Source: a bacterium
Lineage (GTDB): Bacteria; Bacillota_I; Bacilli_A; RF39; UBA660
DNA: 64,000 bases
Direction of reading: 5' to 3'
NCBI GenBank assembly: GCA_029100545.1
Contig: JAQXPH010000033.1
Coordinates: 9,672-73,671 of the forward strand
Shown: piece after piece, positions 5,118 through 59,648 of the stretch
Layout: the number at the start of each line of letters is the position of its first letter
Numbering within the stretch: position 1 is the stretch's first letter
The notes under the pieces: generated by a model
Told to the model about the DNA's origin: nothing
Database searches by the model: none
Seen by the model: the letters and a program-made list of their open reading frames with translations, nothing else
Translations under genes and position numbers: made by a program

Positions 5118-6556
<1,439 letters not shown>

Positions 6557-6558
<2 letters not shown>

Positions 6559-12095: not shown

Positions 12096-12476
12096 ATGAA
12101 TGAAAATATTAAAAAAATATATTTATGTATTGAAAATATTATTTATTATCTAAAAAATATGATATTTAAAGTAAATGATAATAATTTAAAAAATATCTTA
12201 AAAAAACAGTTAATTGAAGTTCAAAAAATTAAATATTTATGTTTAAAAAAAAATAAAATATTAAAAGAAAATAATATAATTACATGTATAAAAAAAGATA
12301 TTTATATTGATTTTATATTACATAATACAAATGATAAAAAAATTATAAATAAATTAATAAAATTATATAATGATAGTTTAATTCAATTTAATAATAAAAA
12401 CAAAAATAATATAATAATAAATAATTATATAGATTTTTTAAATAAATGTATAAATGATTTAGAAAAAATAAAATAG
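12096..12476 (+). CDS. hypothetical helical protein (extremely AT-rich ORF)
   Basis: 126-aa K/N/I-rich ORF filling the gap between rnj and the fibre cluster. No motif recognised. Confidence 0.3.
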   Translation: MNENIKKIYLCIENIIYYLKNMIFKVNDNNLKNILKKQLIEVQKIKYLCLKKNKILKENNIITCIKKDIYIDFILHNTNDKKIINKLIKLYNDSLIQFNNKNKNNIIINNYIDFLNKCINDLEKIK

Positions 12477-12509: not shown

Positions 12510-12527
12510 TTATAATAGGTGAAGGGT

Positions 12528-13616
12528 ATGAGAAAAGAAAATACTAGTCCATTGATTGTTACCATACTTGCTGTCATTTCTTTGGCATGTATTTCTGTAG
12601 GTGTATCATATTCTTATTTATCAAAAATATCTTCATCAAATGTAACAGCAAATATACAAACTGGTAATTTAAATGCTACTTTATCATATGTTCAAATTAC
12701 TGATGGTGCATTAGTTCCACTTTCAGATAGTGATGGAGTAAATCAAACTACTTATGCTAAAGTATCTATTTCCAAAAATAATCAATATACTGTTTTTTAT
12801 ACAATTAATATTTCATATTCTGTTGATTCTTTATCTTCTTATGGAATAACTACAGATGATTTATTACCATTAGAATATGTAAGGGTGGCACTTTTTGACT
12901 CAATAGATTCAAATATTCCTTTAGTGGGTCCTATTGCAATAACTGAACTTCCTTTACAAAGTGTTGATACAATAAATCATTATAAGGATATATATACTCT
13001 TGCATTTGGTAATTTTATCGCAGGCTCTGATACAAAAGATTATTATATAAAGGCTTGGCTTGATCCTATTACACCAGAAATTAATGAAGGAAGACCTATT
13101 TTGCTTGATGTAAATATTACCCAAAATCCTTTAGTGAGCACTTCAATTTATAATTTATCTGGGAATGTAACTGTTGATGGAACAGCGGTAACGGGAGCAG
13201 TAGTATCACTTCAAAATGGATTAGTTAATTCAACTACTTCAAGTGGAGCATTTAATTTAACAAATGTGCCAATTGGTACTTATAATTTATCAGTAAATTA
13301 CAATAATAATAAATATGAAACAACAGTAAATATTTCATCAGGAAGTAGTGAAAGTGTGTCTGCAAGAAGTAGTGCAACATGTGAAGCAGGTTCATATTTA
13401 CAAAATTGTGCATTTACATATTTTACAACTGTAGACAAAATTGTAAAGATGAATTCTATAACTTCTGGAAGTAATACACAATTAGCAAGTTCTTATAATT
13501 TACCAACTTCTTATTTAATAACTGGAAAAGAATCAATTTCAGTTTTAGATATAAGTGGTATTAAAATTGATGTTAGTACTGCTTCAAATAGTGTTTCTTT
13601 AGTAATTTTAAAATAA
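12528..13616 (+). CDS. secreted protein P1: TasA/CalY-type (SipW-type) signal peptide, N-terminal domain and CarboxypepD_reg-like beta-sandwich
   Basis: The leader ends ...ISVGVSYSYLSKISSSNVTANIQTGNLNATL, compared with GGGTFAYFSD...AGTLDL of CalY/TasA. The C-terminal LSGNVTVDGTAVTGAVVSLQNG...GAFNLTNVPIGTYNLSV matches the carboxypeptidase-regulatory-like fold pattern. Confidence 0.6.
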   Translation: MRKENTSPLIVTILAVISLACISVGVSYSYLSKISSSNVTANIQTGNLNATLSYVQITDGALVPLSDSDGVNQTTYAKVSISKNNQYTVFYTINISYSVDSLSSYGITTDDLLPLEYVRVALFDSIDSNIPLVGPIAITELPLQSVDTINHYKDIYTLAFGNFIAGSDTKDYYIKAWLDPITPEINEGRPILLDVNITQNPLVSTSIYNLSGNVTVDGTAVTGAVVSLQNGLVNSTTSSGAFNLTNVPIGTYNLSVNYNNNKYETTVNISSGSSESVSARSSATCEAGSYLQNCAFTYFTTVDKIVKMNSITSGSNTQLASSYNLPTSYLITGKESISVLDISGIKIDVSTASNSVSLVILK

Positions 13617-13700: not shown

Positions 13701-14390
13701 ATGGAAAAGAAAAATACTTTATTGTTAACTGTTATAGCAGTAGCTACATTATTAGTAGCAGTAGTAGGTGCGACATTCGCATACTTCGGTTCATTTACAA
13801 CTACTGTTGATAACAAAGCAGCAGTAAACGTTGCAACTGAGGCTGCTAAATCATCAACATTTTCTACATCATCTGCATCACTTAAATTAAATGTAGCTGG
13901 ATCAGAAATGCTTAAAGGTACTGGCTCTGCAACTCAAGTTGGTTCATATACTGGAGATAATGCTAATTTAATAGTATCATTAGAAGCAAATGACCAAACA
14001 ACTACAACTACTTGTACATATGATGTTTATTTTGTTTATGATGAAGGATCAGCAGTATATGGTAATGATCCAACTCCAGTAACAGCTGGAACTGATAATA
14101 AAGAATTTACTTACACATTAAAATCTGATGCTGCTGGTTTAGTAGTTGATCCTACATATATAGCTGAAACTGAAAAAGATTTCTCAGTATTTAAAACTGC
14201 TACAACTGCAGTTAAAGTAGCTTCAGGAACAATTGCTGCAAGTAATACTACTACAACTCAAACACTTACTGCAAAAGTTATGTTCTATAATTTCCCAACA
14301 ATCGATCAAACTGCACTATCTGATAAGACTTATGGCGGTAAATTCTATGTTGAACAATCTACTGTAGTTTGTGGTACAACAGCTGTATAG
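13701..14390 (+). CDS. secreted fibre-subunit candidate P2 (TasA/CalY-type signal peptide, novel body)
   Basis: MEKKNTLLLTVIAVATLLVAVVGATFAYFGSF. The mature part is T/S/A/V-rich with two Cys (C105, C224) and motifs CTYDV and FYNFPTIDQTAL..GKFYV. It has a strong SD, its own terminator and C-ending codons. Confidence 0.7.
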   Translation: MEKKNTLLLTVIAVATLLVAVVGATFAYFGSFTTTVDNKAAVNVATEAAKSSTFSTSSASLKLNVAGSEMLKGTGSATQVGSYTGDNANLIVSLEANDQTTTTTCTYDVYFVYDEGSAVYGNDPTPVTAGTDNKEFTYTLKSDAAGLVVDPTYIAETEKDFSVFKTATTAVKVASGTIAASNTTTTQTLTAKVMFYNFPTIDQTALSDKTYGGKFYVEQSTVVCGTTAV

Positions 14391-14543: not shown

Positions 14544-15245
14544 ATGGAAAAGAAAAATAGTTTATTTTTAACAATTGTGGCTGTTGCAGTTTTACTAGCT
14601 GCAGTAGTGGGAGCAACATTTGCATACTTTGGTTCATTTACAACTACAGTAACTAATCGAGCTGCGGTAAATGTTACAACAGCTGAGGCAAAATCATCTT
14701 CATTTATATCAACAGCAGCTGCACTTTCATTAAGTGTATCAAGTTCAGAAATGCTAAAAGGTACAGGTAGTGCAACTTCAGTTGGAACTTATGCAGGAGG
14801 AAATTCAAACGCTACTTTAACAGCAAGTTTAACTGCAACTGATTCAACAACAACCACAACATGTACATATGATGTAATGTTTGCTTATGATAGTACTTCT
14901 GCAATTTATGGTAGTGCAACAACTCCAGTAACATCTGGAACAAATAACCAAGAATTTGTTTATACAATAACTTCATCTGCTCCAACATCTTTAGTTATTC
15001 AAAATTCATATAAAAATGCAAATAGTGATTTTTCAACATTTAAGACAGCTACTAATGAAACAAATGCTATTAAAGTTGCAAGTGGTACAATTTCTGCAAA
15101 AAATACTACTACAACTCAAACACTATCAGTAAATGTTAAATTTTATAATTTCCCAACAATTGATCAAACTGCCCTTGCAAGTAAAACATTTTCTGGAAAA
15201 TTTTATGTAAATTCAACATCTGTAGTTTGTAATACAACTGCTTAA
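14544..15245 (+). CDS. secreted fibre-subunit candidate P3 (tandem paralogue of P2)
   Basis: The first ~35 aa are almost identical to P2 (VVGATFAYFGSFTTTV). Same CTYDV and FYNFPTIDQTAL..GKFYV motifs, with Cys107 and Cys229. Confidence 0.7.
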   Translation: MEKKNSLFLTIVAVAVLLAAVVGATFAYFGSFTTTVTNRAAVNVTTAEAKSSSFISTAAALSLSVSSSEMLKGTGSATSVGTYAGGNSNATLTASLTATDSTTTTTCTYDVMFAYDSTSAIYGSATTPVTSGTNNQEFVYTITSSAPTSLVIQNSYKNANSDFSTFKTATNETNAIKVASGTISAKNTTTTQTLSVNVKFYNFPTIDQTALASKTFSGKFYVNSTSVVCNTTA

Positions 15246-15342: not shown

Positions 15343-15978
15343 ATGAATGATAGAAAAAAAAGAAATATTATTTATTTAATTGTATTTATATTCATATTTG
15401 TAATGATAATAACAGTTAGTACTTATTGTTATTTTATTACAAAAGATTTTTATTATGGTAATTTTAATGTTGAAGTAAATACTAAAGGTGTTGATACATT
15501 GCAAATGAAAAATTTAGTAGATGCTAATTTAAATGTAAATGATCGTAATTTTATTAAAGATGTAGGTCATTCTATAAGTGGAACAAGTTCAATTGATGTA
15601 GTACTTGATACCACTAAAAAAGAAACTAAATATTGTTATAATGTATATTTAAGTTTGCCAGATAATGAAATATTTTCTTATAGTAATTATCCTAAGCCTG
15701 AACTTAGTTTATCAGTTTATGAAACTAATAATAATGAAAAAAATATATTAATAGATAATATTGATATAACTAAAAGTACTGGTAAAATAGAGGTTCCTTC
15801 AAGTTTAAATAATGAAAATATTATTCATAATATATCTACAACTAAAAATAAAACAAATACTATAACTTATGAAGCAGTTATAACATTTAATTATTTTCCT
15901 AATATAGATCAAAGTATTAATGGTAATTTAAGTTATAAAGCAACTTTAGTAGTCGATAATGTATATGAATGTAAGTAG
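15343..15978 (+). CDS. divergent family member P4 (minor-subunit candidate)
   Basis: The leader ends ITVSTYCYFITK. It shares KYCYNVY, FNYFPNIDQS and a C-terminal Cys (VYEC) with P2/P3, but is N/K/I-rich with ordinary codon usage. Confidence 0.6.
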   Translation: MNDRKKRNIIYLIVFIFIFVMIITVSTYCYFITKDFYYGNFNVEVNTKGVDTLQMKNLVDANLNVNDRNFIKDVGHSISGTSSIDVVLDTTKKETKYCYNVYLSLPDNEIFSYSNYPKPELSLSVYETNNNEKNILIDNIDITKSTGKIEVPSSLNNENIIHNISTTKNKTNTITYEAVITFNYFPNIDQSINGNLSYKATLVVDNVYECK

Positions 15979-29930: not shown

Positions 29931-30233
29931 ATGAATAAGAAAGGGCAAGCATTAATTGAATTTATTATAATACTTCCAATATTTATTATGATAATGTTGG
30001 CTGTTTTTGATTATGTTAGAATATATAGTGAAAAAAGTAATTTAGAAAGTGTTATGGAAGATGTTGTATTATCTAATGAATTAAAAGATGATAATATAAC
30101 TCTCTTAAAAGAATTAGATGATGAAAAGACTAAATATACATTAAATAAAAGTATTGATATTTATAGTCCTGTAATAAGTGTAATTTTAGGCAATAAATAT
30201 GTTGTATCAGTAAGTAGGACTATTTATGAATAA
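29931..30233 (+). CDS. TadE-like pseudopilin 1
   Basis: MNKKGQALIEFIIILPIFIMIMLAVFDYV is a TadE N-terminal domain with the G/xxxxEF prepilin-like site. Confidence 0.7.
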   Translation: MNKKGQALIEFIIILPIFIMIMLAVFDYVRIYSEKSNLESVMEDVVLSNELKDDNITLLKELDDEKTKYTLNKSIDIYSPVISVILGNKYVVSVSRTIYE

Positions 30234-30579
30234 AAAAGGTCAATCATTAGTTATCTTTATTATTATTTTACCTATTATATTACTTTTATTTGGACTATTA
30301 ATTGAAAGAGTATATTTAACTTATCAAAAGCAAAAATTATATTCTGTTACTAAAACTATTATAGCATTTTCTATTGAAAGAAATGATAAAAATGATATAA
30401 TTAATTTATATAAAGATAATAATATAGTTCTAGAAAATATTGAAATTGAAGATGATAATGGTTTAAAAATAATTGCCAGTGAAAAAGTACCAAGTTTAAT
30501 AAAAAAAGAGGATTATATTATTGAAGTAAATATTAAAGGGGTAAAAAAAGAAGATAAAATAATTTATCAAAGAGGCTAG
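30226..30579 (+). CDS. TadE-like pseudopilin 2
   Basis: MNKKGQSLVIFIIILPIILLLFGLLIERV. Same architecture, with Glu+5 replaced by Ile. 8-nt overlap with the previous gene. Confidence 0.6.
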   Translation: MNKKGQSLVIFIIILPIILLLFGLLIERVYLTYQKQKLYSVTKTIIAFSIERNDKNDIINLYKDNNIVLENIEIEDDNGLKIIASEKVPSLIKKEDYIIEVNIKGVKKEDKIIYQRG

Positions 30580-30580
30580 T

Positions 30581-31342
30581 ATGGGAAGAAAAAAAGGTCA
30601 AAGTATATGTATTTTTTCTACGAAAGGTGGAACTGGTTGTAGTATAACTGCACTTAATCTAGCAGGAATTTTTTCACTTGCAAATAAAAAAGTATTATTA
30701 ATTGATTATGATTTATCTTTTGGCTCTATAGCTTTAATGCTAAATAAAAATTTTGATAAAACTATATATAATTTTGTGGATGATTATGCTAATAATCGTT
30801 TTAAGAGTTTATCTGATTATGTAACACAATATAATGATAATATTTATTTTTTACCTAGTACAAAAGATCCTAGACAAAGTGCTAAAATAAATTTTAATTA
30901 TATTGAATTAATTATTGAAAAAGCTATTTTTGAATATGACTATGTTATTATTGATACAAATCATGATTTATCTGAAAAAAATGTTTTTTTACTTGACTAT
31001 GTTGATAGAATTCTTCTTATAATGGAAAATAATCTTGCTAATATAAAAAATATGAGAAGTCTTCTTAAAATATTTGATGATGCAAATATTAAAAATTTTA
31101 AAATACTTTTGAATGAGTCAATAAGTTTATATAAAAATTATTTTAGTTTATATGATATTAAAAAAATGATAGATGCTAATATAGATTATTATATTGATAA
31201 TAGTTTCTTTATAAAAAATATTGATAATTATATTTATGATGGAAGTATTTTAACTTTGGATAAAAGATTTATTAAAACTTATCCTAAAATAAATAAAGTA
31301 TTTAATTTAATATTAAAAGATATGGAGGAAGAAAATGAGTAA
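30581..31342 (+). CDS. TadZ/CpaE-like ParA/MinD-family ATPase
   Basis: Deviant Walker A ICIFSTKGGTGCS, plus LIDYD. Confidence 0.7.
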   Translation: MGRKKGQSICIFSTKGGTGCSITALNLAGIFSLANKKVLLIDYDLSFGSIALMLNKNFDKTIYNFVDDYANNRFKSLSDYVTQYNDNIYFLPSTKDPRQSAKINFNYIELIIEKAIFEYDYVIIDTNHDLSEKNVFLLDYVDRILLIMENNLANIKNMRSLLKIFDDANIKNFKILLNESISLYKNYFSLYDIKKMIDANIDYYIDNSFFIKNIDNYIYDGSILTLDKRFIKTYPKINKVFNLILKDMEEENE

Positions 31343-32654
31343 TTTAAAAGAACTATTTGATTATAAAAATCCTCCTAAAGATAATAATATTATTAATGAT
31401 TATGATATCTTTAAAGACAAGAATTTACTTGATAATTTACGTACTAAAATTGTTGAAAATATAATTGATAATAATATTACAAATGATGACAATTTAGATG
31501 ATTTTTTAAATAATGAGATTAATAAAACTATTGAAGGATATGATTTAACAAATTTAGAAAGAAGTCATTTATATAATTTAATTGAAAATGAAATAAATGG
31601 TTATGGTCCTTTAACAGAATTATTAAAAGATGAAAATATTACGGAAATAATGGTTAATTCTCCAAGTGAAATATATATTGAAATAGATGGTAATTTAATT
31701 AAAGATGAAAGTATTTCTTTTATTAATGATGCACATATTGTAAGAACTATTCAAAAATTAATTGAACCATTAGGTAGAACTATTGATTCATCTAGTCCAA
31801 TGGTTGATTCAAGACTTAAAGATGGTTCAAGAATAAATGCAGTTATACCTCCTTTATCTACTAAAGGTCCAGTAATTACAATAAGAAAATTTAAAACATC
31901 AATTTCTAATATAGATGAACTTATTCGTTTAGGTTCTCTTACTCCAAATATGGCCTCTTTTCTTGAGGCAGCTGTAAAATCTAAAATGAACATTTTAGTT
32001 TGTGGTGGAACTGGTTCTGGTAAAACAACACTTTTAAATATTTTAAGTAGTTTTATTCCAGAAGAAGAAAGAATAATAACGATTGAAGATGCTGCAGAAT
32101 TAAAACTATCTCAGCCACATGTAATATCACTTGAAACAAGAACTACAAATTATGAAAGTAGTGGCGAAGTAACTATTCGTGATTTAGTTAGAAATTCACT
32201 TCGTATGAGACCTGATAGAATAATCGTTGGTGAAGTAAGAGGTGGGGAAGCTTTTGATATGCTTCAAGCAATGAATACTGGCCATGAAGGAAGTTTAACT
32301 ACACTTCATGCTAATAGTAATATAGATGCTTTACATCGTCTTGAAACAATGGTTTTAATGGCAAATATTGATATTCCAGTAAGAGCAGTAAGAGAATATA
32401 TATTTAATGCCATTGATCTTGTAATTAATATTGAACGTTTATCTGATGGAAAAAGAAAGATAAGAGCAATTTCTGAAGTAATAGACTTTAAAGATGATGA
32501 AATAGTTCTTAATGATATATTTAAATTTAATCAAATTGGTATTACTTCTTCTAAAGAAGTTGATGGACAGTTTATTGAAATCAAAAAAATGCCAAAATGT
32601 ATAAAGAAAATAGAAAGTTATGGATTTAAAGATATAGAAAAAATATTTAAATAG
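31335..32654 (+). CDS. Tad secretion ATPase CpaF/TadA
   Basis: GYGPLTELLKDENITEIMVN, Walker A GGTGSGKTT, RPDRIIVGEVRGGEAFDMLQAMNTGHEGSLTTLHAN. Confidence 0.9.
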   Translation: MSNLKELFDYKNPPKDNNIINDYDIFKDKNLLDNLRTKIVENIIDNNITNDDNLDDFLNNEINKTIEGYDLTNLERSHLYNLIENEINGYGPLTELLKDENITEIMVNSPSEIYIEIDGNLIKDESISFINDAHIVRTIQKLIEPLGRTIDSSSPMVDSRLKDGSRINAVIPPLSTKGPVITIRKFKTSISNIDELIRLGSLTPNMASFLEAAVKSKMNILVCGGTGSGKTTLLNILSSFIPEEERIITIEDAAELKLSQPHVISLETRTTNYESSGEVTIRDLVRNSLRMRPDRIIVGEVRGGEAFDMLQAMNTGHEGSLTTLHANSNIDALHRLETMVLMANIDIPVRAVREYIFNAIDLVINIERLSDGKRKIRAISEVIDFKDDEIVLNDIFKFNQIGITSSKEVDGQFIEIKKMPKCIKKIESYGFKDIEKIFK

Positions 32655-32662
32655 GAGTTAAT

Positions 32663-33673
32663 ATGAATAGCGCAGTAATATCAAAACTAATTATTGAAAT
32701 TATTATTTGCATAATTTTTGTTATTTGTGCTTTTCTTTTTGTGCGTATATTTTATCAAGTAAAAAATATTAAAAGAATTGAAAATTTTTCTATTTCAAAA
32801 AATAATATTAATGAAAATAGTATTTATGATAAACTTTATAAATTTTTTGTAAAATTGTTAAAAAAAATATCTAAATATACTAAAAAATCATATTTTTTAA
32901 GTAATTATGCTAAAAAACTTGATAAGTATTTGATTTACAATAAAAATAAAAATATTACTTCTAATGATTTTATTTCACTAAAAATTGTGTATATGTTATT
33001 TGTTCTTATTTTATATTTTATTACTTGTATAATTAGAATTGTAAATATTAATTTATTTGTTTCCTTACTTATTTGTATTTTATCATTTTTTATAATAGAT
33101 ATAATTATATATATTGTATATAAAAATAAACGTAATACTATTGAATCAGGTCTTTTACAAGCGGTAGTAATTATGAATAGTGCTTTTAAAAGTGGAAAAA
33201 ATATTTATCAAGCAATAAATATTGTAAGAACATCTTTATCAAGTCCGATTAAAGAAGAATTTGATATAATTGCTAAAGACTTAAATTATGGTCTTGATTT
33301 AACTACTGTTTTTTCAAGATTTTATGACCGGGTAAAGGTTGATGAAATTAAATATATTACATCATCTCTTTCTTTATTAAATAAAACTGGTGGTAATATT
33401 GTCTCTGTGTTTAATATGATTGAAAAACATTTTTATGATAAACTAAAAATTAAAAATGAACTATCTTCCTTAACAAGTTCAAGTAAAATGTTATATAGAA
33501 TTTTAACATTAGTTCCATTTATTTTTGTAATAGTTATTGTTACTTTAAATCCTACATATTTTAATCCATTAATTACAACTAAAATTGGATTAGTTTTAGA
33601 CATAATAATGCTTTTAATGTATGTAATATATATTATTATTATTAAAAAGGTATTAAAGGTGGAAAAAATATGA
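32663..33673 (+). CDS. TadB-like platform protein (T2SS-F domain)
   Basis: Polytopic protein with a central cytoplasmic helical domain (LLQAVVIMNSAFKSGKNIYQAINIV...EFDIIAKDLNYGL). Follows the ATPase. Confidence 0.65.
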   Translation: MNSAVISKLIIEIIICIIFVICAFLFVRIFYQVKNIKRIENFSISKNNINENSIYDKLYKFFVKLLKKISKYTKKSYFLSNYAKKLDKYLIYNKNKNITSNDFISLKIVYMLFVLILYFITCIIRIVNINLFVSLLICILSFFIIDIIIYIVYKNKRNTIESGLLQAVVIMNSAFKSGKNIYQAINIVRTSLSSPIKEEFDIIAKDLNYGLDLTTVFSRFYDRVKVDEIKYITSSLSLLNKTGGNIVSVFNMIEKHFYDKLKIKNELSSLTSSSKMLYRILTLVPFIFVIVIVTLNPTYFNPLITTKIGLVLDIIMLLMYVIYIIIIKKVLKVEKI

Positions 33674-34371
33674 AAGTAAATAAATTTTTTAAAAGTATTT
33701 ATCCAAATATAACAATAAAAAATCTTGAAAATAAATTTTTATATTTATCTTATGATAAAAAAAATAATATTAATTTATTTTTAGGATTAAGGCTTTCTTT
33801 AAGTATTTTAGTGTTTATATTAAGTTTATTTATATTTAAAAATGGTTATTTTATTGCTCCAATACTTACTATTGCAATTTATATATTATTTGAATATCTT
33901 TTTTTAGATTTAAAAATAAGAAAAAGAGCTAAAATAATAGAAAGTGATTCAATATTTTTCTTTGAAGTATTAAGTCTTACTATTCAAAGTGAAAGAAATT
34001 TAAAACTATGTATTGAAACAACTTGTAATGCTATAGATAGTTCAATTAGCGATGAATTTAAAATATGTTTAAAAGAAGTAAAACTTGGAAAAACACTTAC
34101 TGAAGGATTAGTTGATTTAATGCAAAGAATTCCTTCGAAAAGTGTATGTAATGTTATTTTAAATATTATTGAAGCTAATGAATTTGGAAATAGTATTGAA
34201 GGAGCTCTAATTAATCAAGTAAATTATTTAACAGATAAAAGAATTTTGGATATTAAATCAAATATTAATAAAATGCCAATGAAAATATCTATTATATCAG
34301 TTTTATTATTTTTGCCTCTTATGTTAATATTAATTATTGGCCCAATTATTATTAATTATATTTTAGGATAA
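33670..34371 (+). CDS. TadC-like platform protein (T2SS-F domain)
   Basis: Same architecture (FFEVLSLTIQSERNLKLCIE...EVKLGKTLTEGL). ATGA overlap with the tadB-like gene. Confidence 0.65.
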   Translation: MKVNKFFKSIYPNITIKNLENKFLYLSYDKKNNINLFLGLRLSLSILVFILSLFIFKNGYFIAPILTIAIYILFEYLFLDLKIRKRAKIIESDSIFFFEVLSLTIQSERNLKLCIETTCNAIDSSISDEFKICLKEVKLGKTLTEGLVDLMQRIPSKSVCNVILNIIEANEFGNSIEGALINQVNYLTDKRILDIKSNINKMPMKISIISVLLFLPLMLILIIGPIIINYILG

Positions 34372-37989: not shown

Positions 37990-38292
37990 GTGAATAGTGT
38001 GAATAAAGCATATAAATTTACATATATATTTTTACTTTGTATGGTTATAATATTACTTGCTATTTTGTTAATATGGTTTACAAAAACATATAAAGTAAGT
38101 TTTGATACAGATGGTGCACAGAATTATGAAATTGTATTAGTTAGACCTGCGAAAAAGGTTGAATTACCACCAGATCCAGTAAAAGAAGGATATATTTTCG
38201 AAGGTTGGTATTTAAATGATAATTATTTTGATGTAGATACCTTAATATTCGAAGATATTACATTAAAAGCTAAATGGAAAAAAGTTACATAA
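37990..38292 (+). CDS. membrane-anchored protein with one Listeria-Bacteroides (InlB B-repeat/Flg_new) domain
   Basis: YKVSFDTDGAQ...PPDPVKEGYIFEGWYLNDNYFDVDTLIFEDITLKAKW matches the repeat signature. Confidence 0.6.
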   Translation: MNSVNKAYKFTYIFLLCMVIILLAILLIWFTKTYKVSFDTDGAQNYEIVLVRPAKKVELPPDPVKEGYIFEGWYLNDNYFDVDTLIFEDITLKAKWKKVT

Positions 38293-40546: not shown

Positions 40547-41716
40547 TTGAAAAAATATAAAATAGTAATAATTATAATAGTGATTTTTATAACTATAGAA
40601 GTAAAAGCAATTAGTCTTAGTAATAAAAATGGTTCATTATTTAGAAATTTATGTTCAAATGATGGAAAAATATATGAAATTAAATTTATTAATTTACAAG
40701 AAAGAGAAAGTTATTTTTTACTTCCTTTAGAAAAATTTAACATTGATTTAAAAACTTATGAATATTCTTCACTTGAAAAAACTAATTTTCCTTTAGATTT
40801 AAAAGATTATTATTTATCATTTATTGAATTTAAAAATAAATATAATTTAAATTTTTATGTTTATCATGGTTTAACTCAAAGACTTATTTGGAATTATTTA
40901 TATCCTGATAAAAACTTTAGATTTTGTGATGATAATAAAAAATATTATGATTTTTATGAAAATGAATATAATGAAGTTAAAGAAAAAATAGAAAATGTTA
41001 TTAATGGTCCAGAATTTTTTAAAAATATAAACTATCAATTACCTAATAAAGAATATATATATGAATTTAAATATTTAGATAATTATTATGTATATGATAA
41101 TGGTGGACTTGATGTAAAACTAATAAATAATAAACTTTATATAAAAGGAGAAAAAGGAAGTTATAAAATATTATTTAAGAAAAATAAAGTAGTTTATAAT
41201 GATATTTTATTTAATTATTTAGTTACGGATGGACAAAATTATGTCTTTAGTGCTAATAATTATAATGATGTAACTTATGAAATGAATATAATAATAGATA
41301 ATTATAATTTAACTATTATGGTTACTGATAATGAAGAAAGTTTAAATAAATGTATAACTTTAACAAGTGAAAGTGAAAGTAATGTATTTTGTGCAAATGA
41401 AAATAATTTAATTAATATTAGTCTTTTAAAAGGAAAATATATAATTACTTATAATGAAGATGATTTATATAAAGAAAAAAGTATTACAATAAATCTTGAT
41501 AAAGATAATTTAATTAAATTAAACTTAGAAAGAAAAAATGCTATAGAAAAAGATAATCTTATAAAAGATGATATTAAGTTAGATAATAATATTAATGAGG
41601 AATATACAGATAATATTATATTTGAAAATACATTATCTATTAATAATATAATTTATATTATTATATTTTTAATTATAATTTCTACTGGAGTTATTTTTGT
41701 TAGAAAGAAAAAATAA
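40547..41716 (+). CDS. surface protein with signal peptide and sortase-type C-terminal anchor (non-LPXTG)
   Basis: Signal peptide ...TIEVKA/IS. The C-terminus is FENTLSINN plus an 18-aa hydrophobic stretch plus RKKK. Its 3' end overlaps the sortase-like gene. Confidence 0.55.
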   Translation: MKKYKIVIIIIVIFITIEVKAISLSNKNGSLFRNLCSNDGKIYEIKFINLQERESYFLLPLEKFNIDLKTYEYSSLEKTNFPLDLKDYYLSFIEFKNKYNLNFYVYHGLTQRLIWNYLYPDKNFRFCDDNKKYYDFYENEYNEVKEKIENVINGPEFFKNINYQLPNKEYIYEFKYLDNYYVYDNGGLDVKLINNKLYIKGEKGSYKILFKKNKVVYNDILFNYLVTDGQNYVFSANNYNDVTYEMNIIIDNYNLTIMVTDNEESLNKCITLTSESESNVFCANENNLINISLLKGKYIITYNEDDLYKEKSITINLDKDNLIKLNLERKNAIEKDNLIKDDIKLDNNINEEYTDNIIFENTLSINNIIYIIIFLIIISTGVIFVRKKK

Positions 41717-42194
41717 AATAGGTTATTTAATTATAATAATAATTATATTGTTATGCTTTAATAAAACAAAATATTTAAAAAATGATACTAATATTTTTAT
41801 ATTTGATAATTATAATAATACTTTTGATATTTATTTAAAAATACCTAAAATAAATTTTAAAAAAACATTTAATGATAAATCTTCTTTAAAAGATAATATT
41901 ATGTTATCACCTTATTCTAAAATAAAGAATAATAAAAGTACAATTATTATATTAGGTCATTCAGGATATGCAAAAAATGCTTTTTTTAATGATTTAATTA
42001 ATTTATCTATTAATGATGAGATATTTATTAAATATTTTGGAGTTACTTATAAATATATTATATTTGATATTGAATATATAACTAAAAAAAGTAGTTATAT
42101 AATAACTTATGAACAAAATTATTTATATTTAGTAACATGTGATTTATTTAATTTAAATAAACAAATTGTAATTAAAGCAAAATGTATAAAATAA
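41697..42194 (+). CDS. miniature sortase-like transpeptidase
   Basis: N-terminal TM, IIILGHSG (catalytic His context) and LYLVTCD (TLxTC Cys motif). I could not see the usual C-terminal catalytic Arg. Confidence 0.55.
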   Translation: MLERKNKIGYLIIIIIILLCFNKTKYLKNDTNIFIFDNYNNTFDIYLKIPKINFKKTFNDKSSLKDNIMLSPYSKIKNNKSTIIILGHSGYAKNAFFNDLINLSINDEIFIKYFGVTYKYIIFDIEYITKKSSYIITYEQNYLYLVTCDLFNLNKQIVIKAKCIK

Positions 42195-43523: not shown

Positions 43524-43581
43524 TATTGGAAAATAAAAAAAATTATGCTATTATATTTGTGGTATGGTAGGAAAATAAGTT

Positions 43582-45813
43582 ATGGAAAATAAAAAAAATA
43601 AATTAGATAAAAAAAGTATTTCAATTATTATAATAGTAGCAATTTTTCTAGTTATTATAATGGCAATAACTTTTGCTTATTTTGGTAATTTTTTTGTAAA
43701 TCTTGGTAATATGTTAAATGTTAATTTATCTGCTGGAGAATTATCAAATGCTTATTTAAATGCAACAAATACATCATTTTCTATTGATATTGATCCTGAA
43801 AATATGAGTGAAGATAATGCAGGTAATTTTGTTATAACTAATGAGTCTAGTTTAAATGTATTTTTAGATGCAGGTACAACTAGTTTTGGAGTTAAATGTA
43901 CTTATGATATTATGTTTGAATATGATAGTACTTCAAGTATTTATGGTAAAGAGCCAACTCCAGTAAGTGATGGAGCAACAAAAGAATTTACTTTACAAGC
44001 AAGTGGACCAACTACTTTTTCTAATTTTTTTAAAGAAGAAACAAATTTTGCTTATGATAGTAATTGGAGTTCTAATCCATATAGAAGAACTATTGCAAGT
44101 AATGTAGAAATTATAAATACAAGTTCAAATAATCCTATAGTTCAAACATGGATTTTTACAAATAAATTTTATAATTTAGATTTAGATCAAACAGCTCTTG
44201 CTAATAAAAAATTTAAAGGTAGATTTTATGTAGATAATACTCATTGTGAAACTACCCAAATTGCTAATGATAGTGAAACTTTATATGCATTAGTACAAAA
44301 TAAATATAATGAAGGAAATACTTTTGTAAAACTTTATGATGGAGAAGGATCTGATTCCTATGCTAATCCAGTATACTATTATAATGGCGCAGTACAAGAT
44401 AATAATGTTTATTTTGCGGACCTATGCTGGAAAATGGTTAGAACTACCGATACTGGAGGAGTTAAATTAATTTATAATGGAACGCCAAAAACAATTACCA
44501 AACCAATACCTATAGAAGAATCACAGTATCTAAATGTATCGAATGATGCAAACTACCCATATACATTTGATAGTACTAATAAAACATGGACAAGTACTAA
44601 TAAAACTAATAGTGCCACCGGTACAATAACATTTACTGTAGCAGAAGCAGGTGATTATTTTCTATCATATACCGTTTCTTCAGAGGCAAATTGGGATAAA
44701 GCAATATTTTATAAAGATGGTACAACGCTTGGTACTTACAGTGGTGAAGCAAGTGGAAGCATTACTCTAGATGGTCTTACAACCTCAAATGTAATAAAAG
44801 TAGAGTATACAAAAGATTCATCGGGAGCAATTGGTAGTGATAATGTAGTCTTTAGTTTGGATAAACCCTCTGGTAATTCATATTTAACATGTAATAATAC
44901 TGGAACTGATTCTCAAATAGGAACAAGTTCATTTAATGGTAGTTATGATTCTCTAGCATATGTAGGTTATATGTATAATACAGAGTATACTTCTTCATCT
45001 AAAACAAGATCACAATTATCTAATATAGTATTTGGTAATTCATTTACATATTCAGGTGGCACGTATACACTTGCTGATACAATGACAGTAGCAACTTGGT
45101 CAAGTGGTTATAATACAATAAATAATAATCATTATACGTGTTTTACTACGGGTACTACTTGTCCGTCTTTATATTATGTACATTATGCTGATTCTTCAAA
45201 TGCATATTATATAACGCTTACGGGTGGTAAATCAGTAAGCGATGCTTTAAATGAAATGTTATATGTAGGTGATGTAAATAAAACTAATTCAATAATAAAA
45301 ACATATATAGAAACATGGTATGAAAATAATATGACAGCATATACATCATCTCTAGAAGATACAACTTATTGTAATGACCGAAGTATAATAAATTTAAATG
45401 GCTGGAATCCAAATGGAGGAAGTACAACTGGTTATTTACAATTTAAAAATTATAATGATAATTATAGTTTAGTATGTGGTAGTGTTACAGATCAATTTAG
45501 AGTAGGAAATACAAAAGCACCACTTAAATATCCAGTAGGTTTACTTACAGCCCCAGAAGTATTGCTAGCTTATAAAGATGCAAATTATAGCACATATTAT
45601 TTAAATACAGAACAGATTTATTGGCTTGGGTCCCCTAGCTACTTCATCAACAAAAACAGCAATGCTTACGTGCGTCTCGTCAGTAGTTCGGGCAACCTGA
45701 GTAACAACTACGTGAACGATTCTATCGGGGTCCGCCCGTCCGTTTCCTTAAAACCTGGCACCGAATATATTTCAGGAAATGGGTCATATACTTCACCATT
45801 TTTGATAGAATAG
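43582..45813 (+). CDS. large family member P5: TasA/CalY-type leader, P2/P3-like module and ~520-aa adhesin-like extension ending in a lectin-like domain
   Basis: The leader ends IIMAITFAYFGNF. It shares VKCTYDIMFEYDSTSSIYGKEPTPVS and FYNLDLDQTALANKKFKGRFYVDNTHC with P2/P3. The extension contains YYYNGAVQDNNVYFADLCWKMVRT and ends YWLGSPS...SIGVRPSVSLKPG..GNGSYTSPFLIE. Confidence 0.7.
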   Translation: MENKKNKLDKKSISIIIIVAIFLVIIMAITFAYFGNFFVNLGNMLNVNLSAGELSNAYLNATNTSFSIDIDPENMSEDNAGNFVITNESSLNVFLDAGTTSFGVKCTYDIMFEYDSTSSIYGKEPTPVSDGATKEFTLQASGPTTFSNFFKEETNFAYDSNWSSNPYRRTIASNVEIINTSSNNPIVQTWIFTNKFYNLDLDQTALANKKFKGRFYVDNTHCETTQIANDSETLYALVQNKYNEGNTFVKLYDGEGSDSYANPVYYYNGAVQDNNVYFADLCWKMVRTTDTGGVKLIYNGTPKTITKPIPIEESQYLNVSNDANYPYTFDSTNKTWTSTNKTNSATGTITFTVAEAGDYFLSYTVSSEANWDKAIFYKDGTTLGTYSGEASGSITLDGLTTSNVIKVEYTKDSSGAIGSDNVVFSLDKPSGNSYLTCNNTGTDSQIGTSSFNGSYDSLAYVGYMYNTEYTSSSKTRSQLSNIVFGNSFTYSGGTYTLADTMTVATWSSGYNTINNNHYTCFTTGTTCPSLYYVHYADSSNAYYITLTGGKSVSDALNEMLYVGDVNKTNSIIKTYIETWYENNMTAYTSSLEDTTYCNDRSIINLNGWNPNGGSTTGYLQFKNYNDNYSLVCGSVTDQFRVGNTKAPLKYPVGLLTAPEVLLAYKDANYSTYYLNTEQIYWLGSPSYFINKNSNAYVRLVSSSGNLSNNYVNDSIGVRPSVSLKPGTEYISGNGSYTSPFLIE

Positions 45814-45856: not shown

Positions 45857-45880
45857 CCTCGCGAAAACCCTTTCGCGAGG
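45857..45880. other. GC-rich perfect hairpin (10-bp stem, 4-nt loop) downstream of P5
   Basis: CCTCGCGAAA-ACCC-TTTCGCGAGG. No T-run follows on either strand, so it is not a typical terminator for this genome. Confidence 0.8.
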
Positions 45881-59147: not shown

Positions 59148-59648
59148 ATGAGAAATAATAAAAAAGGTTTTACACTTATCGAACTTTTAGCAGTTATCGT
59201 TATTCTAGCAGTAGTTATGCTTATTGCAGTAAGTGCTGTTGGACCATTAATGGCAAAATCTAGGAAAGGAGCTTTAGAAAACGAAGGTATAGCGCTTTCA
59301 AATGCTGCGAAAACAGCTTTCCAAGCTGAACAATTAAATGCCAACTCAGCTATTAAAGCTACAAGTACAGTATGTTTTGATCTAGAGTATTTATATAGTC
59401 AAAAGTACTATGAAAAAGGCTCTGCACAAGATTATACTGGTTCAGTATTAGTAACATATGCTGGTGGAGATTATACTTATAAAATTTGGATTTCTAATAA
59501 AACATATGCTATTTCAGGAAAAGCACCAAATGCTATTAATTTAGACACTGATGTTACTGATGCTACAAGCGCATCAAATAATTGTGGTGGAACTCTTGCA
59601 ACTGGTAATGTCTATTGTACTGGTTCAGCTTGTACAGTTCAACCATAA
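59148..59648 (+). CDS. type IV pilin (prepilin-type N-terminal cleavage/methylation domain)
   Basis: MRNNKKG/FTLIELLAVIVILAVVMLIAV is a canonical class III signal with Glu+5. Cys-rich C-terminus (NNCGG..VYCTGSAC). Strong SD and terminator. Confidence 0.85.
   Translation: MRNNKKGFTLIELLAVIVILAVVMLIAVSAVGPLMAKSRKGALENEGIALSNAAKTAFQAEQLNANSAIKATSTVCFDLEYLYSQKYYEKGSAQDYTGSVLVTYAGGDYTYKIWISNKTYAISGKAPNAINLDTDVTDATSASNNCGGTLATGNVYCTGSACTVQP

Follow-up and report, generated by a model that had tools for sequence, protein, structure and literature searches.

A probable lectin-like surface protein of an uncultured gut Bacilli bacterium with a variable loop of the diversity-generating retroelement type

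We analysed a stretch of 64,000 nucleotides (nt) from contig JAQXPH010000033.1 of assembly GCA_029100545.1 (hereafter, the window), in which one gene on the + strand encodes P5, a protein of 743 amino acids (aa). P5 is best read as a lectin-like surface protein diversified in the manner of a diversity-generating retroelement (DGR), a reading drawn from the hallmarks of a variable region (VR) in P5 itself, an adenine-specific template repeat (TR) in a relative, and related cassettes with bAvd-like and MutS-like genes. We consider it likely that P5 is an exported modular surface protein, in which a carrier of the P2/P3 family, represented in the same window by the stand-alone proteins P2 and P3, bears a head of the DUF6273/C-type-lectin type with a DGR VR loop, and the uncultured gut bacterium probably uses P5 to keep altering its adhesion target. 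The host of the window is a spore-forming Firmicute of about 23% GC (spoIIGA, sigE and sigG are present), and its closest relatives are metagenome-assembled genomes of uncultured gut organisms labelled "Bacilli bacterium". Adhesins diversified by DGRs are believed to enable gut microbes to adjust how they attach to hosts, mucus or other microbes, and work on them has dealt mainly with phage tail fibres and lately with the type V pili of Bacteroides. The locus suggests that an abundant, uncultured low-GC lineage of Bacilli follows the same strategy on a different chassis, namely a large carrier family whose members are either abundant stand-alone proteins or the N-terminal part of proteins with many different lectin-type heads. 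What appears to be new here is a lectin-type surface protein that is diversified by a DGR and built on a Gram-positive carrier family not described before.

The features on which the argument for diversification draws are as follows.

43582..45813, + strand: P5 open reading frame (ORF), 743 aa, ATG start, stop codon included (ORF listing; orthologues 59-88% identical in the same slot)
45622..45738, + strand: lectin-type scaffold W681-L-G-S-P ... G716-V-R-P719 framing the variable loop (partial DUF6273 match)
45637..45729, + strand: DGR-type VR, aa 686-716 (entropy, GC content at third codon positions (GC3), codon-position bias)
45727..45741, + strand: GC-rich block GGGGTCCGCCCGTCC at the 3' end of the VR, resembling an initiation of mutagenic homology (IMH) element (sequence)

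A preliminary description of this stretch, made from the sequence alone, had missed the DGR-type variable region, the most informative feature of P5. The loop lies between YWLGSP and GVRP and is hypervariable, with an entropy of 2.0-2.6 bits compared with 0.3-1.0 elsewhere in the head; among orthologues that are 83-88% identical overall, most VR positions differ while the fixed scaffold stays. When P5 was compared with its orthologue in locus L001 (83% identical), 19 of the 23 differences within the VR were located at codon positions 1-2, against 123 of 263 elsewhere (Fisher p=9e-4), and the ratio of nonsynonymous to synonymous differences was 14:1 in the VR and 108:104 in the rest of the gene (Fisher p=1e-3). 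Residues at the variable positions were 94% encodable by NNC codons. GC3 reaches 0.70 in codons 691-720, as opposed to 0.03-0.20 elsewhere in P5 (gene background ~0.1), and the VR falls within the GC-richest 90-nt stretch of the whole 64-kb window; this GC3 island argues for a recent rewriting of the loop from a template outside the window. P5 has several traits of a DGR target: its variation is limited to a short stretch near the C-terminus within a scaffold that stays constant, the changes fall on codon positions 1-2, the residue spectrum is of the NNC type and the 3' end is GC-rich. We infer that the host genome has its own TR and reverse transcriptase (RT) outside the window; cellular DGRs with remote targets have been documented (PMC5758913).

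The connection to a DGR is established for an orthologue of P5 in a related genome, through an adenine-specific TR. On a 440-kb contig from a Hadza gut metagenome (L005), the orthologue P0010 (59% identical to P5) occupies the same sigG-UPF0316-P5-rimP-nusA slot, and a non-coding TR is located 160 nt downstream of it, between the orthologue and rimP (~12340-12455). This TR contains 34 adenines in 108 nt (~16 AAC/AAT codons); it has the same scaffold codons, and AAC in place of almost all variable ones. Its mismatches to three VRs were concentrated at adenines, as follows.

P0010 VR (same locus) against the L005 TR: mismatches at 21/34 adenines and 6/74 other bases, Fisher p=9e-9
P0018 VR (same contig, 185 kb away) against the L005 TR: mismatches at 16/34 adenines and 5/74 other bases, Fisher p=3e-6
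P0017 VR (another genome) against the L005 TR: mismatches at 9/34 adenines and 2/74 other bases, Fisher p=4e-4

The VR and TR of L005 both end in GCGGGGGGCG(T/C)GCGTCCG, with a one-base difference like that of an IMH/IMH* pair. The layout, with targets at a housekeeping locus and a TR lacking an adjacent reverse transcriptase, is unusual, and we found no description in the literature of a TR that stands beside its target yet far from any RT or Avd. Related cassettes that share the scaffold encode bAvd-like ORFs (E=5e-5 and 6e-4) and a MutS_I ORF (1.7e-8). In L020 (1000-3176; likewise in L014, L017, L022 and L023), a DUF6273 target stands ahead of a MutS-domain-I ORF, a bAvd-like ORF and a TR that has 16 AAC codons, and the L020 target, which has the same scaffold, scores above the DUF6273 threshold (26.8 bits). 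On L024, a contig of 24% GC, a non-coding TR precedes a bAvd-like ORF (394-1140; E=4.7e-5); the scaffold codons of this TR are identical to those of the window (TGG CTT GGG TCC CCT), and the TR is related to the window VR but not cognate (p=0.03). These cassettes came from a metagenome scan for the TR signature, and the TR-bearing contigs that it returned were too short to include an RT. The N-terminus of the L020 target is of the prepilin type (KGITLIALVITIIVLLILAG; N_methyl E=0.003), marking a distinct family of DGR targets, and this target is split over two overlapping ORFs, possibly by a frameshift.

Several results weigh against reading P5 as a diversified lectin-like surface protein. An RT-like ORF of the DGR kind (YxDD, ORF >200 aa) and Avd were both absent from the window, from L001-L011 and from L028, and a search for TR, RT and Avd in the window and 17 loci near family members, which covered 10-kb flanks of orthologues and paralogues, yielded the L005 TR as its sole find. 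That TR is one codon shorter than the matching VRs and has no RT or Avd within 10 kb, and it may therefore be defective. Compared with two heterologous TRs, neither of them cognate, the window VR showed no adenine-specific pattern (p=0.28 and 0.03). As regards the head, DUF6273 (PF19789) matches P5 aa 673-724 with 19.6 bits, below the cut-off of 23.5, over profile positions 126-171 of 172, and it was detected at E<0.01 in 4 of 57 relatives; AlphaFold2 modelled the last ~180 residues poorly, with predicted local distance difference test (pLDDT) values of 30-50 for aa 560-743, and their lectin fold is putative.

The loop could instead be the product of ordinary diversifying selection or recombination among paralogues, or the fossil of a lost DGR. 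The absence of a TR and an RT from the window, the poor fit of the window VR to the available TRs, the imperfect and one-codon-shorter L005 TR, and the presence of several paralogues per genome that could swap segments are all consistent with such an origin. Point mutation under selection, however, would not be expected to raise a GC3 island of 0.70 in a gene of ~0.1 GC3 within a 23% GC genome, and such an island would decay unless rewritten. The residue spectrum (94% NNC-encodable) and the interleaving of fixed and variable codons, as seen in the TR/VR pairs of orthologues, likewise point to templated change, as do the cassettes with the same scaffold that include bAvd, a MutS-like ORF and a TR, one of them on a 24% GC contig with identical scaffold codons. 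We regard an origin of the loop without an active DGR as improbable.

If P5 is a DGR-diversified surface protein, its exposed head loop (aa 686-716) would be the variable region, and a reverse transcriptase would copy an AAC-rich template repeat with errors at adenines; the resulting cDNA would then overwrite the loop codons of P5. The scaffold residues (W-L-x-S-P, F, A, V, G and G-V-R-P) would remain fixed while ~20 positions are randomised, and binding specificity would therefore change. The N-terminal 227 residues would act as a carrier, composed of a leader, the [ST]-F-A-[YF]-[FL] motif, a short conserved strand and a disulfide-braced beta-sandwich, and the C-terminal 516 residues as a ligand-binding head, in which a DUF6273/C-type-lectin-type scaffold is combined with an inserted beta-sandwich. 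The N-module may hold the head on the cell through association with abundant stand-alone P2/P3 subunits, and the ligand bound by the head is presumed to be variable. An invariant-leader family with a clear motif, a defined variable loop and a TR in a related genome offer testable items.

The head corresponds to the following two features.

44263..45810, + strand: head module, aa 228-743, 516 residues (local hidden Markov model (HMM), E=2.6e-272; single copy in the window)
44485..44892, + strand: inserted all-beta domain, aa 302-437 (pLDDT ~90-96; no Pfam match)

The head is modular. More than 2,500 proteins match P5, most of them over the C-terminal ~69-73% of the query at ~63% identity, and the head is fused to at least three types of N-module, A (P2/P3-like), B (weakly P1-like) and C (a small Cys-containing domain), with several head-bearing paralogues per genome. 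Type A carriers also bear many other heads, most of which end in W-x-x-S-P ... G-V-R-P. The jelly-roll or carbohydrate-binding-module-like insert proposed in the preliminary description proved to be real, since AlphaFold2 models aa 302-437 with pLDDT ~90-96; it is missing from ~600-aa paralogues such as P0038 and P0046. The same description had associated the terminal YWLGSP...GVRP pattern with C-type-lectin-like modules; the motif is there, and its only Pfam signal is a sub-threshold DUF6273 match (E=9e-4). Foldseek comparison of the full-length P5 model with the PDB returned stretched multi-domain alignments only, at a template modelling (TM) score of ~0.1 (cupins, carbohydrate-binding modules, Cry toxins), and the whole-P5 alignment profile found no relative among PDB sequences. 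A C-type-lectin-like character has been ascribed to DUF6273 as a target of phage DGRs (PMC10743442), and the domain has also been described at the N-terminus of a gut immunoglobulin A protease (PMC12402451). Given the inserted beta-sandwich and the C-type-lectin-like (DUF6273-type) terminal motif, it is very plausible that the C-terminal extension is a ligand-binding head.

The carrier half of P5 and its relatives in the window comprise the following features.

43582..43677, + strand: leader of P5, aa 1-32, with a basic n-region, ~16-20 hydrophobic residues and the motif T30-F-A-Y-F34, which extends past its end (sequence; AlphaFold2 helix aa 10-35)
43678..43752, + strand: N-terminal extension of P5, aa 33-57, with the phi-N-phi strand motif N46-V-N-L49 (pLDDT <50 for aa 34-54)
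43753..44256, + strand: P2/P3-family beta-sandwich of P5, aa 58-225, with the Cys pair C106/C222 (pLDDT 83-93, BLASTP, hmmsearch, invariant Cys columns)
12519..13616, + strand: P1, 365 aa (only the N-terminal tag in common with P2-P5)
13701..14390, + strand: P2, stand-alone family member, 229 aa (BLASTP 2e-18 against P5)
14544..15245, + strand: P3, stand-alone family member, 233 aa (BLASTP 1e-19; AlphaFold2 predicted TM score (pTM) 0.74)
15343..15978, + strand: P4, divergent family member, 211 aa (hmmsearch 4.9e-10; hhalign matches its C-terminal FNYFPNIDQS motif)

P5 had been described as a 743-aa fusion of a family module (the first ~225 aa) to a large extension, and both the ORF and the homology agree with this. 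BLASTP aligns aa 1-227 end to end with P3 and P2 at 32% identity, with statistical support of E=1e-19 against P3 and 2e-18 against P2. All the landmarks named earlier were found in P5 (TFAYF at aa 30-34, the Cys pair C106/C222 and FYNLDLDQTALANKKF), as were its distance from the P1-P4 cluster, which is 27.6 kb from the end of P4, upstream, to P5, and the length of the extension, which runs for 521 aa after C222. P5 carries the features of the P2/P3 family: the leader, the FAYF motif, the CxYD strand, the FYN(F/L)xxxDQxAL motif and the terminal Cys. Its designation as the fifth family member stands in part: P5, P2, P3 and P4 are related, but the body of P1 is not detectably so, and P5 is not unique. 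A family profile built from 123 sequences recovered P5 (local hmmsearch, E=2e-59) and P4 (4.9e-10) and did not recover P1; in the exhaustive family profile search, P5 scored 2.3e-52. P1 is weakly similar to the type-B carrier module (BLASTP against P0007, E=0.003 over aa 24-210), and C-terminal to this type-B-like module it has a CarboxypepD_reg-like beta-sandwich (aa 213-281, E=5e-6, below threshold). A conserved helical ORF of ~120 aa (12096-12476) lies ahead of P1, here and in relatives, and a terminator-like hairpin follows P2 (14423-14439).

On sequence grounds, the N-module is part of a large carrier family without prior characterisation. The family comprised 1,968 representatives at 50% identity in the exhaustive profile search (E<=1e-3), where a word-indexed search had given 162 relatives. 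The N-module is always at the extreme N-terminus, and most members are stand-alone proteins of ~220 aa; many others have C-terminal extensions of 100-900 aa, often lectin-like heads. In other genomes, P2/P3 homologues have RNase J and a P1-like gene as neighbours. The invariant columns of the N-module are two Cys, one Glu, one Asn and one Gln. The N-terminus is strikingly conserved: 123 P2/P3 homologues, whose bodies are only ~40% identical, show at least 90% invariance over aa 1-32 (MEKKNTLLLTVIAVATLLVAVVGATFAYFGSF). The leaders of P2 and P3 (13701-13796 and 14544-14639) differ at synonymous sites, which rules out gene conversion as the source of this invariance and therefore indicates selection on the peptide. 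P1-P5 and the other carrier types have an N-terminal tag in common, made up of a basic start, ~20 hydrophobic residues, [ST]-[FY]-[ASC]-[FY]-[FLY], 10-14 further residues and a phi-N-phi strand, the Asn of which is nearly invariant across module types. Signal peptidase would be predicted to cleave the P5 leader between A32 and Y33, a site that resembles the one in TasA by its aromatic residues at P2 and P2', and the phi-N-phi segment might serve as a donor strand or an interaction strand. In the AlphaFold2 model of P3, the beta-sandwich is confident (aa 52-232, pTM 0.74) and has the same fold as the P5 N-module; in both models a helix is followed by 20-30 low-confidence residues and then by the sandwich, on which the helix does not pack.

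Attempts to place this module among known families gave marginal or negative results. No Pfam or NCBIfam model matched over the N-module, and Peptidase_M73 (PF12389)/TasA had no match in the P5 family in either database. When the P3 model was compared with the PDB and BFVD by Foldseek, there was no match at E<=1e-3 (best E=7.5e-3, TM <=0.39), sortase pilins included, and TasA, AbpA and type IV pilins were missing from the top 50 matches. TasA-like and pilin-like folds were therefore rejected, and the N-module cannot be shown to belong with TasA, type IV pilins or sortase pilins. A weak resemblance to chaperone-usher pilin domains was seen (2wmp_B, 4y2l; Foldseek probability 0.5-0.6). The N-terminal peptides alone gave marginal matches in NCBIfam and Pfam, the P2 leader to the BsaA signal region (TIGR04090, E=0.038) and the type-B leader to a model of a Mycoplasma pilin-like protein of an integrative and conjugative element (1e-3). 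The top matches of the family profile in the PDB were archaeal type IV pilins (8fjs, 6w8x and 6nav; aa 6-98), which were non-significant at E=0.13-1.8; an archaeal pilin identity was rejected because the E-values were at least 0.13 and the matches were driven by the hydrophobic helix.

These results bear directly on the earlier view of P5 as a tip adhesin. Its two structural elements, the fusion to a family module and a plausible binding head, hold up, but for a fibre of P2 and P3 as such there was no Pfam or NCBIfam match, no significant structural neighbour of the P3 model and no adjacent assembly or processing gene in the window or in relatives. One version of this view has P2 and P3 polymerising into a fibre, for instance by donor-strand exchange after a SipW/TasA-type cleavage (TFA/YF), with P5 co-polymerising so that its adhesin comes to lie at the tip or the base. 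The aromatic residues at P2 and P2' of T-F-A/Y-F recall T-W-A/A-F of TasA (PMC10269814), the P2 leader weakly matches the signal region of the SipW-dependent BsaA family (E=0.038), and the phi-N-phi strand-like segment common to P1-P5 is disordered in the monomer models. Stand-alone forms are abundant and head-bearing ones rarer, with both existing for at least two carrier types, and P5 would have no other wall- or membrane-retention domain once its leader was cleaved; the weak Foldseek matches to chaperone-usher pilin domains (2wmp_B, 4y2l; probability 0.5-0.6) and the analogies with Bacteroides tip adhesins and AbpB/TapA point the same way. Nevertheless, there is no Peptidase_M73/TasA Pfam match, TasA and AbpA are not among the top 50 structural matches, the window has no sipW-type (S26) motif, no peptidase or assembly gene adjoins P2/P3 homologues in other genomes, and a two-dimensional array or simple monomeric display fits the same data. 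We consider a fibre possible, though rather unlikely.

About equally likely as the tip-adhesin fibre is an uncleaved membrane anchor, with P1-P5 as monomeric type II membrane proteins in which the beta-sandwich is a stalk and no polymer forms. In agreement with this, aa 10-35 of the P5 AlphaFold2 model form one helix long enough to span a membrane (pLDDT ~75-78), with a flexible linker after it; furthermore, the same head occurs on type-C N-termini that resemble plain anchors and lack the FAYF motif, many small proteins of the window use N-terminal anchors, and no dedicated peptidase or assembly gene was found in the window or at homologue loci. The leader itself speaks against an anchor, however, because its layout of n, h and c regions, its helix-breaking Gly/Ala and its T-x-A site at -3 and -1 are those of a canonical cleavable signal of Gram-positive length. 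Across carriers, the most conserved element is found where the hydrophobic stretch ends ([ST]FA[YF][FL]), as for a processing site, and invariance of at least 90% over aa 1-32 in 123 homologues exceeds what a passive anchor needs.

A third possibility is that the family consists of archaeal or Tad-like type IV pilins assembled by the Tad machinery at 29931-34371, in which case P5 would be a modular pilin that combines a pilin module with a lectin module. This Tad-type pilus locus encodes two TadE-like proteins, a TadZ/CpaE-like protein, the TadA/CpaF ATPase, TadB and TadC; it is located directly after spoIIGA-sigE and ~8 kb before sigG. The top PDB profile matches are archaeal pilins (8fjs, 6w8x and 6nav, E=0.13-1.8), pilins are typified by an invariant N-terminal hydrophobic segment, the Tad locus has no Flp pilin gene of its own, and in the L020 DGR target a head of this kind follows a prepilin-type N-terminus. 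Against this, the PDB E-values are non-significant and reflect the hydrophobic helix, the Foldseek top 50 contains no type IV pilin, the helix stands apart from the sandwich by 20-30 low-confidence residues and is unpacked in both models, and conservation across carriers lies where the hydrophobic stretch ends instead of where it begins. P5 also lacks a class III signal, having no G/A at -1 after a basic leader, no Glu at +5 and no N_methyl or other pilin match in Pfam; the regular expression for this signal matches in the window only the true pilin at 59148-59648 and the TadE at 29931. Motifs of S26 (sipW-type) and A24 peptidases were both absent from the window, no Flp-type pilin gene or prepilin peptidase was found in or near the Tad locus, no peptidase, processing or assembly gene adjoins P2/P3 homologues in the window or in other genomes, and no evidence was found that ties the Tad locus to the P2/P3 family. 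We judge this possibility very improbable. The classical type IV pilin at 59148-59648 (MRNNKKGFTLIELLAVIVIL...) has a Cys-rich C-terminus and is unrelated to the P family.

The surroundings of P5 contain two further features.

43526..43554, + strand: promoter-like site TTGGAA-17-TATTAT with TG, within the 58 nt that separate P5 from the gene ahead of it (consensus scan only, weak)
45857..45880, + strand: GC-rich hairpin CCTCGCGAAA-ACCC-TTTCGCGAGG, 44 nt past the P5 stop (no T-tail on the + strand)

Orthologues of P5 (59-88% identity) keep the gene order sigG-UPF0316-P5-rimP-nusA. The neighbours given in the preliminary description, a surface protein, a sortase (Pfam 3e-13), SigG and UPF0316, are correct, but the tie it drew between P5 and the sortase and surface-protein genes did not survive comparison: neither of the syntenic loci L005 and L009 has the pair, and a linkage was rejected, the pair therefore being placed outside the P5 system. 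The partner of the sortase (41697-42194) is a surface protein of 389 aa (40547-41716) rich in N, K and I, which ends in a hydrophobic stretch and RKKK, with no clear LPXTG motif. A C-terminal sorting signal (LPXTG-like motif, hydrophobic stretch and basic tail) is absent from P5, which ends ...GSYTSPFLIE, and from P2, which ends ...VVCGTTAV. The hairpin past P5 has a counterpart in L005 (12223-12246) with the same ACCC loop, compensatory stem changes and a 10-bp stem; it is present in 2 of 5 loci (the window and L005) and absent from L001, L009 and L028, and it is a candidate terminator or DGR target hairpin. A short conserved motif of the 3' untranslated region, AAGTAGGTGCCA, stands ahead of the hairpin position in the window, L001 and L005. 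The N-module of P5 has a GC3 of ~0.03 and the head, with the VR left aside, still has 0.10-0.20, which hints that the two halves have different histories, for example through module shuffling or recombination among paralogues. Two small ORFs with N-terminal anchors were also noted, one at 6235-6558 with a Cys pair and a pilin-like look, and one at 37990-38292 with a C-terminus like the Listeria-Bacteroides repeat.

Among known systems, the tip adhesins of Bacteroides type V pili (BfrT, BthT and BunT) combine an N-terminal domain homologous to stalk pilins with a DGR-diversified C-type-lectin head (bioRxiv 10.1101/2024.11.15.621889). P5 resembles them in that its N-terminal domain is homologous to stand-alone subunits and its C-terminal lectin-type head bears a VR, and in that both systems belong to gut bacteria; Avd and MutS-like (Msl) genes, as in the Bacteroides systems, are found in related cassettes. 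Unlike the Bacteroides lipoprotein pilins with C-terminal donor strands, however, the carrier of P5, which has an N-terminal leader and the FAYF motif, comes from an unrelated Gram-positive family; P5 is not surrounded by an anchor or stalk operon, its housekeeping locus is remote from any RT, and a carrier polymer is hypothetical. More speculatively, and with considerable doubt, we suggest that the P2/P3 family might build an undescribed surface polymer in gut Bacilli, a Gram-positive counterpart of Bacteroides type V pili that would display interchangeable DGR-diversified heads, with templates near remote targets and a distant RT acting in trans.

DUF6273 (PF19789) DGR targets include the tentaclins of gut phages (PMC10743442) and targets in Faecalibacterium prophages (PMC11792537). 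P5 and its relatives have in common with them the W-x-x-S-P ... variable ... [GA]-V-R-P scaffold, AAC-rich TRs and a variable binding role, whereas P5 matches the last third of the Pfam model only, below threshold, and is chromosomal with no phage context; its lectin-type domain is apparently split and enlarged by the ~135-aa beta-sandwich insert and other subdomains. The likeness to TasA/TapA and AbpA/AbpB consists in ~200-aa beta-sandwich subunits and in aromatic residues at P2 and P2' of the signal end (T-F-A/Y-F in P5, T-W-A/A-F in TasA, a SipW substrate; PMC10269814), followed by a conserved N-terminal strand, and AbpB has been considered, from archaeal bundling pili, as a minor subunit with extra distal domains that acts as an adhesin (PMC9245690). 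There is, on the other hand, no sequence (PF12389, NCBIfam) or Foldseek similarity to TasA/AbpA and no sipW in the window or near homologues, and the conserved Cys pair of the P5 family has no TasA counterpart.

In modular type IV pilins, such as PilB and PilC of Streptococcus sanguinis, a small N-terminal assembly module precedes a large adhesive or lectin module; P5 differs from these in having no class III signal peptide, Glu5 or N_methyl motif, and its modelled helix is not packed on the globular domain. Remote targets are known from the TvpA family of Treponema denticola and have been surveyed (PMC5758913). Unlike the TvpA targets, those described here are not lipoproteins, and the L005 TR adjoins its target, away from RT and Avd. 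As in other remote-target DGRs, distant chromosomal targets share one template, with P0010 and P0018, 185 kb apart, both fitting a single TR.

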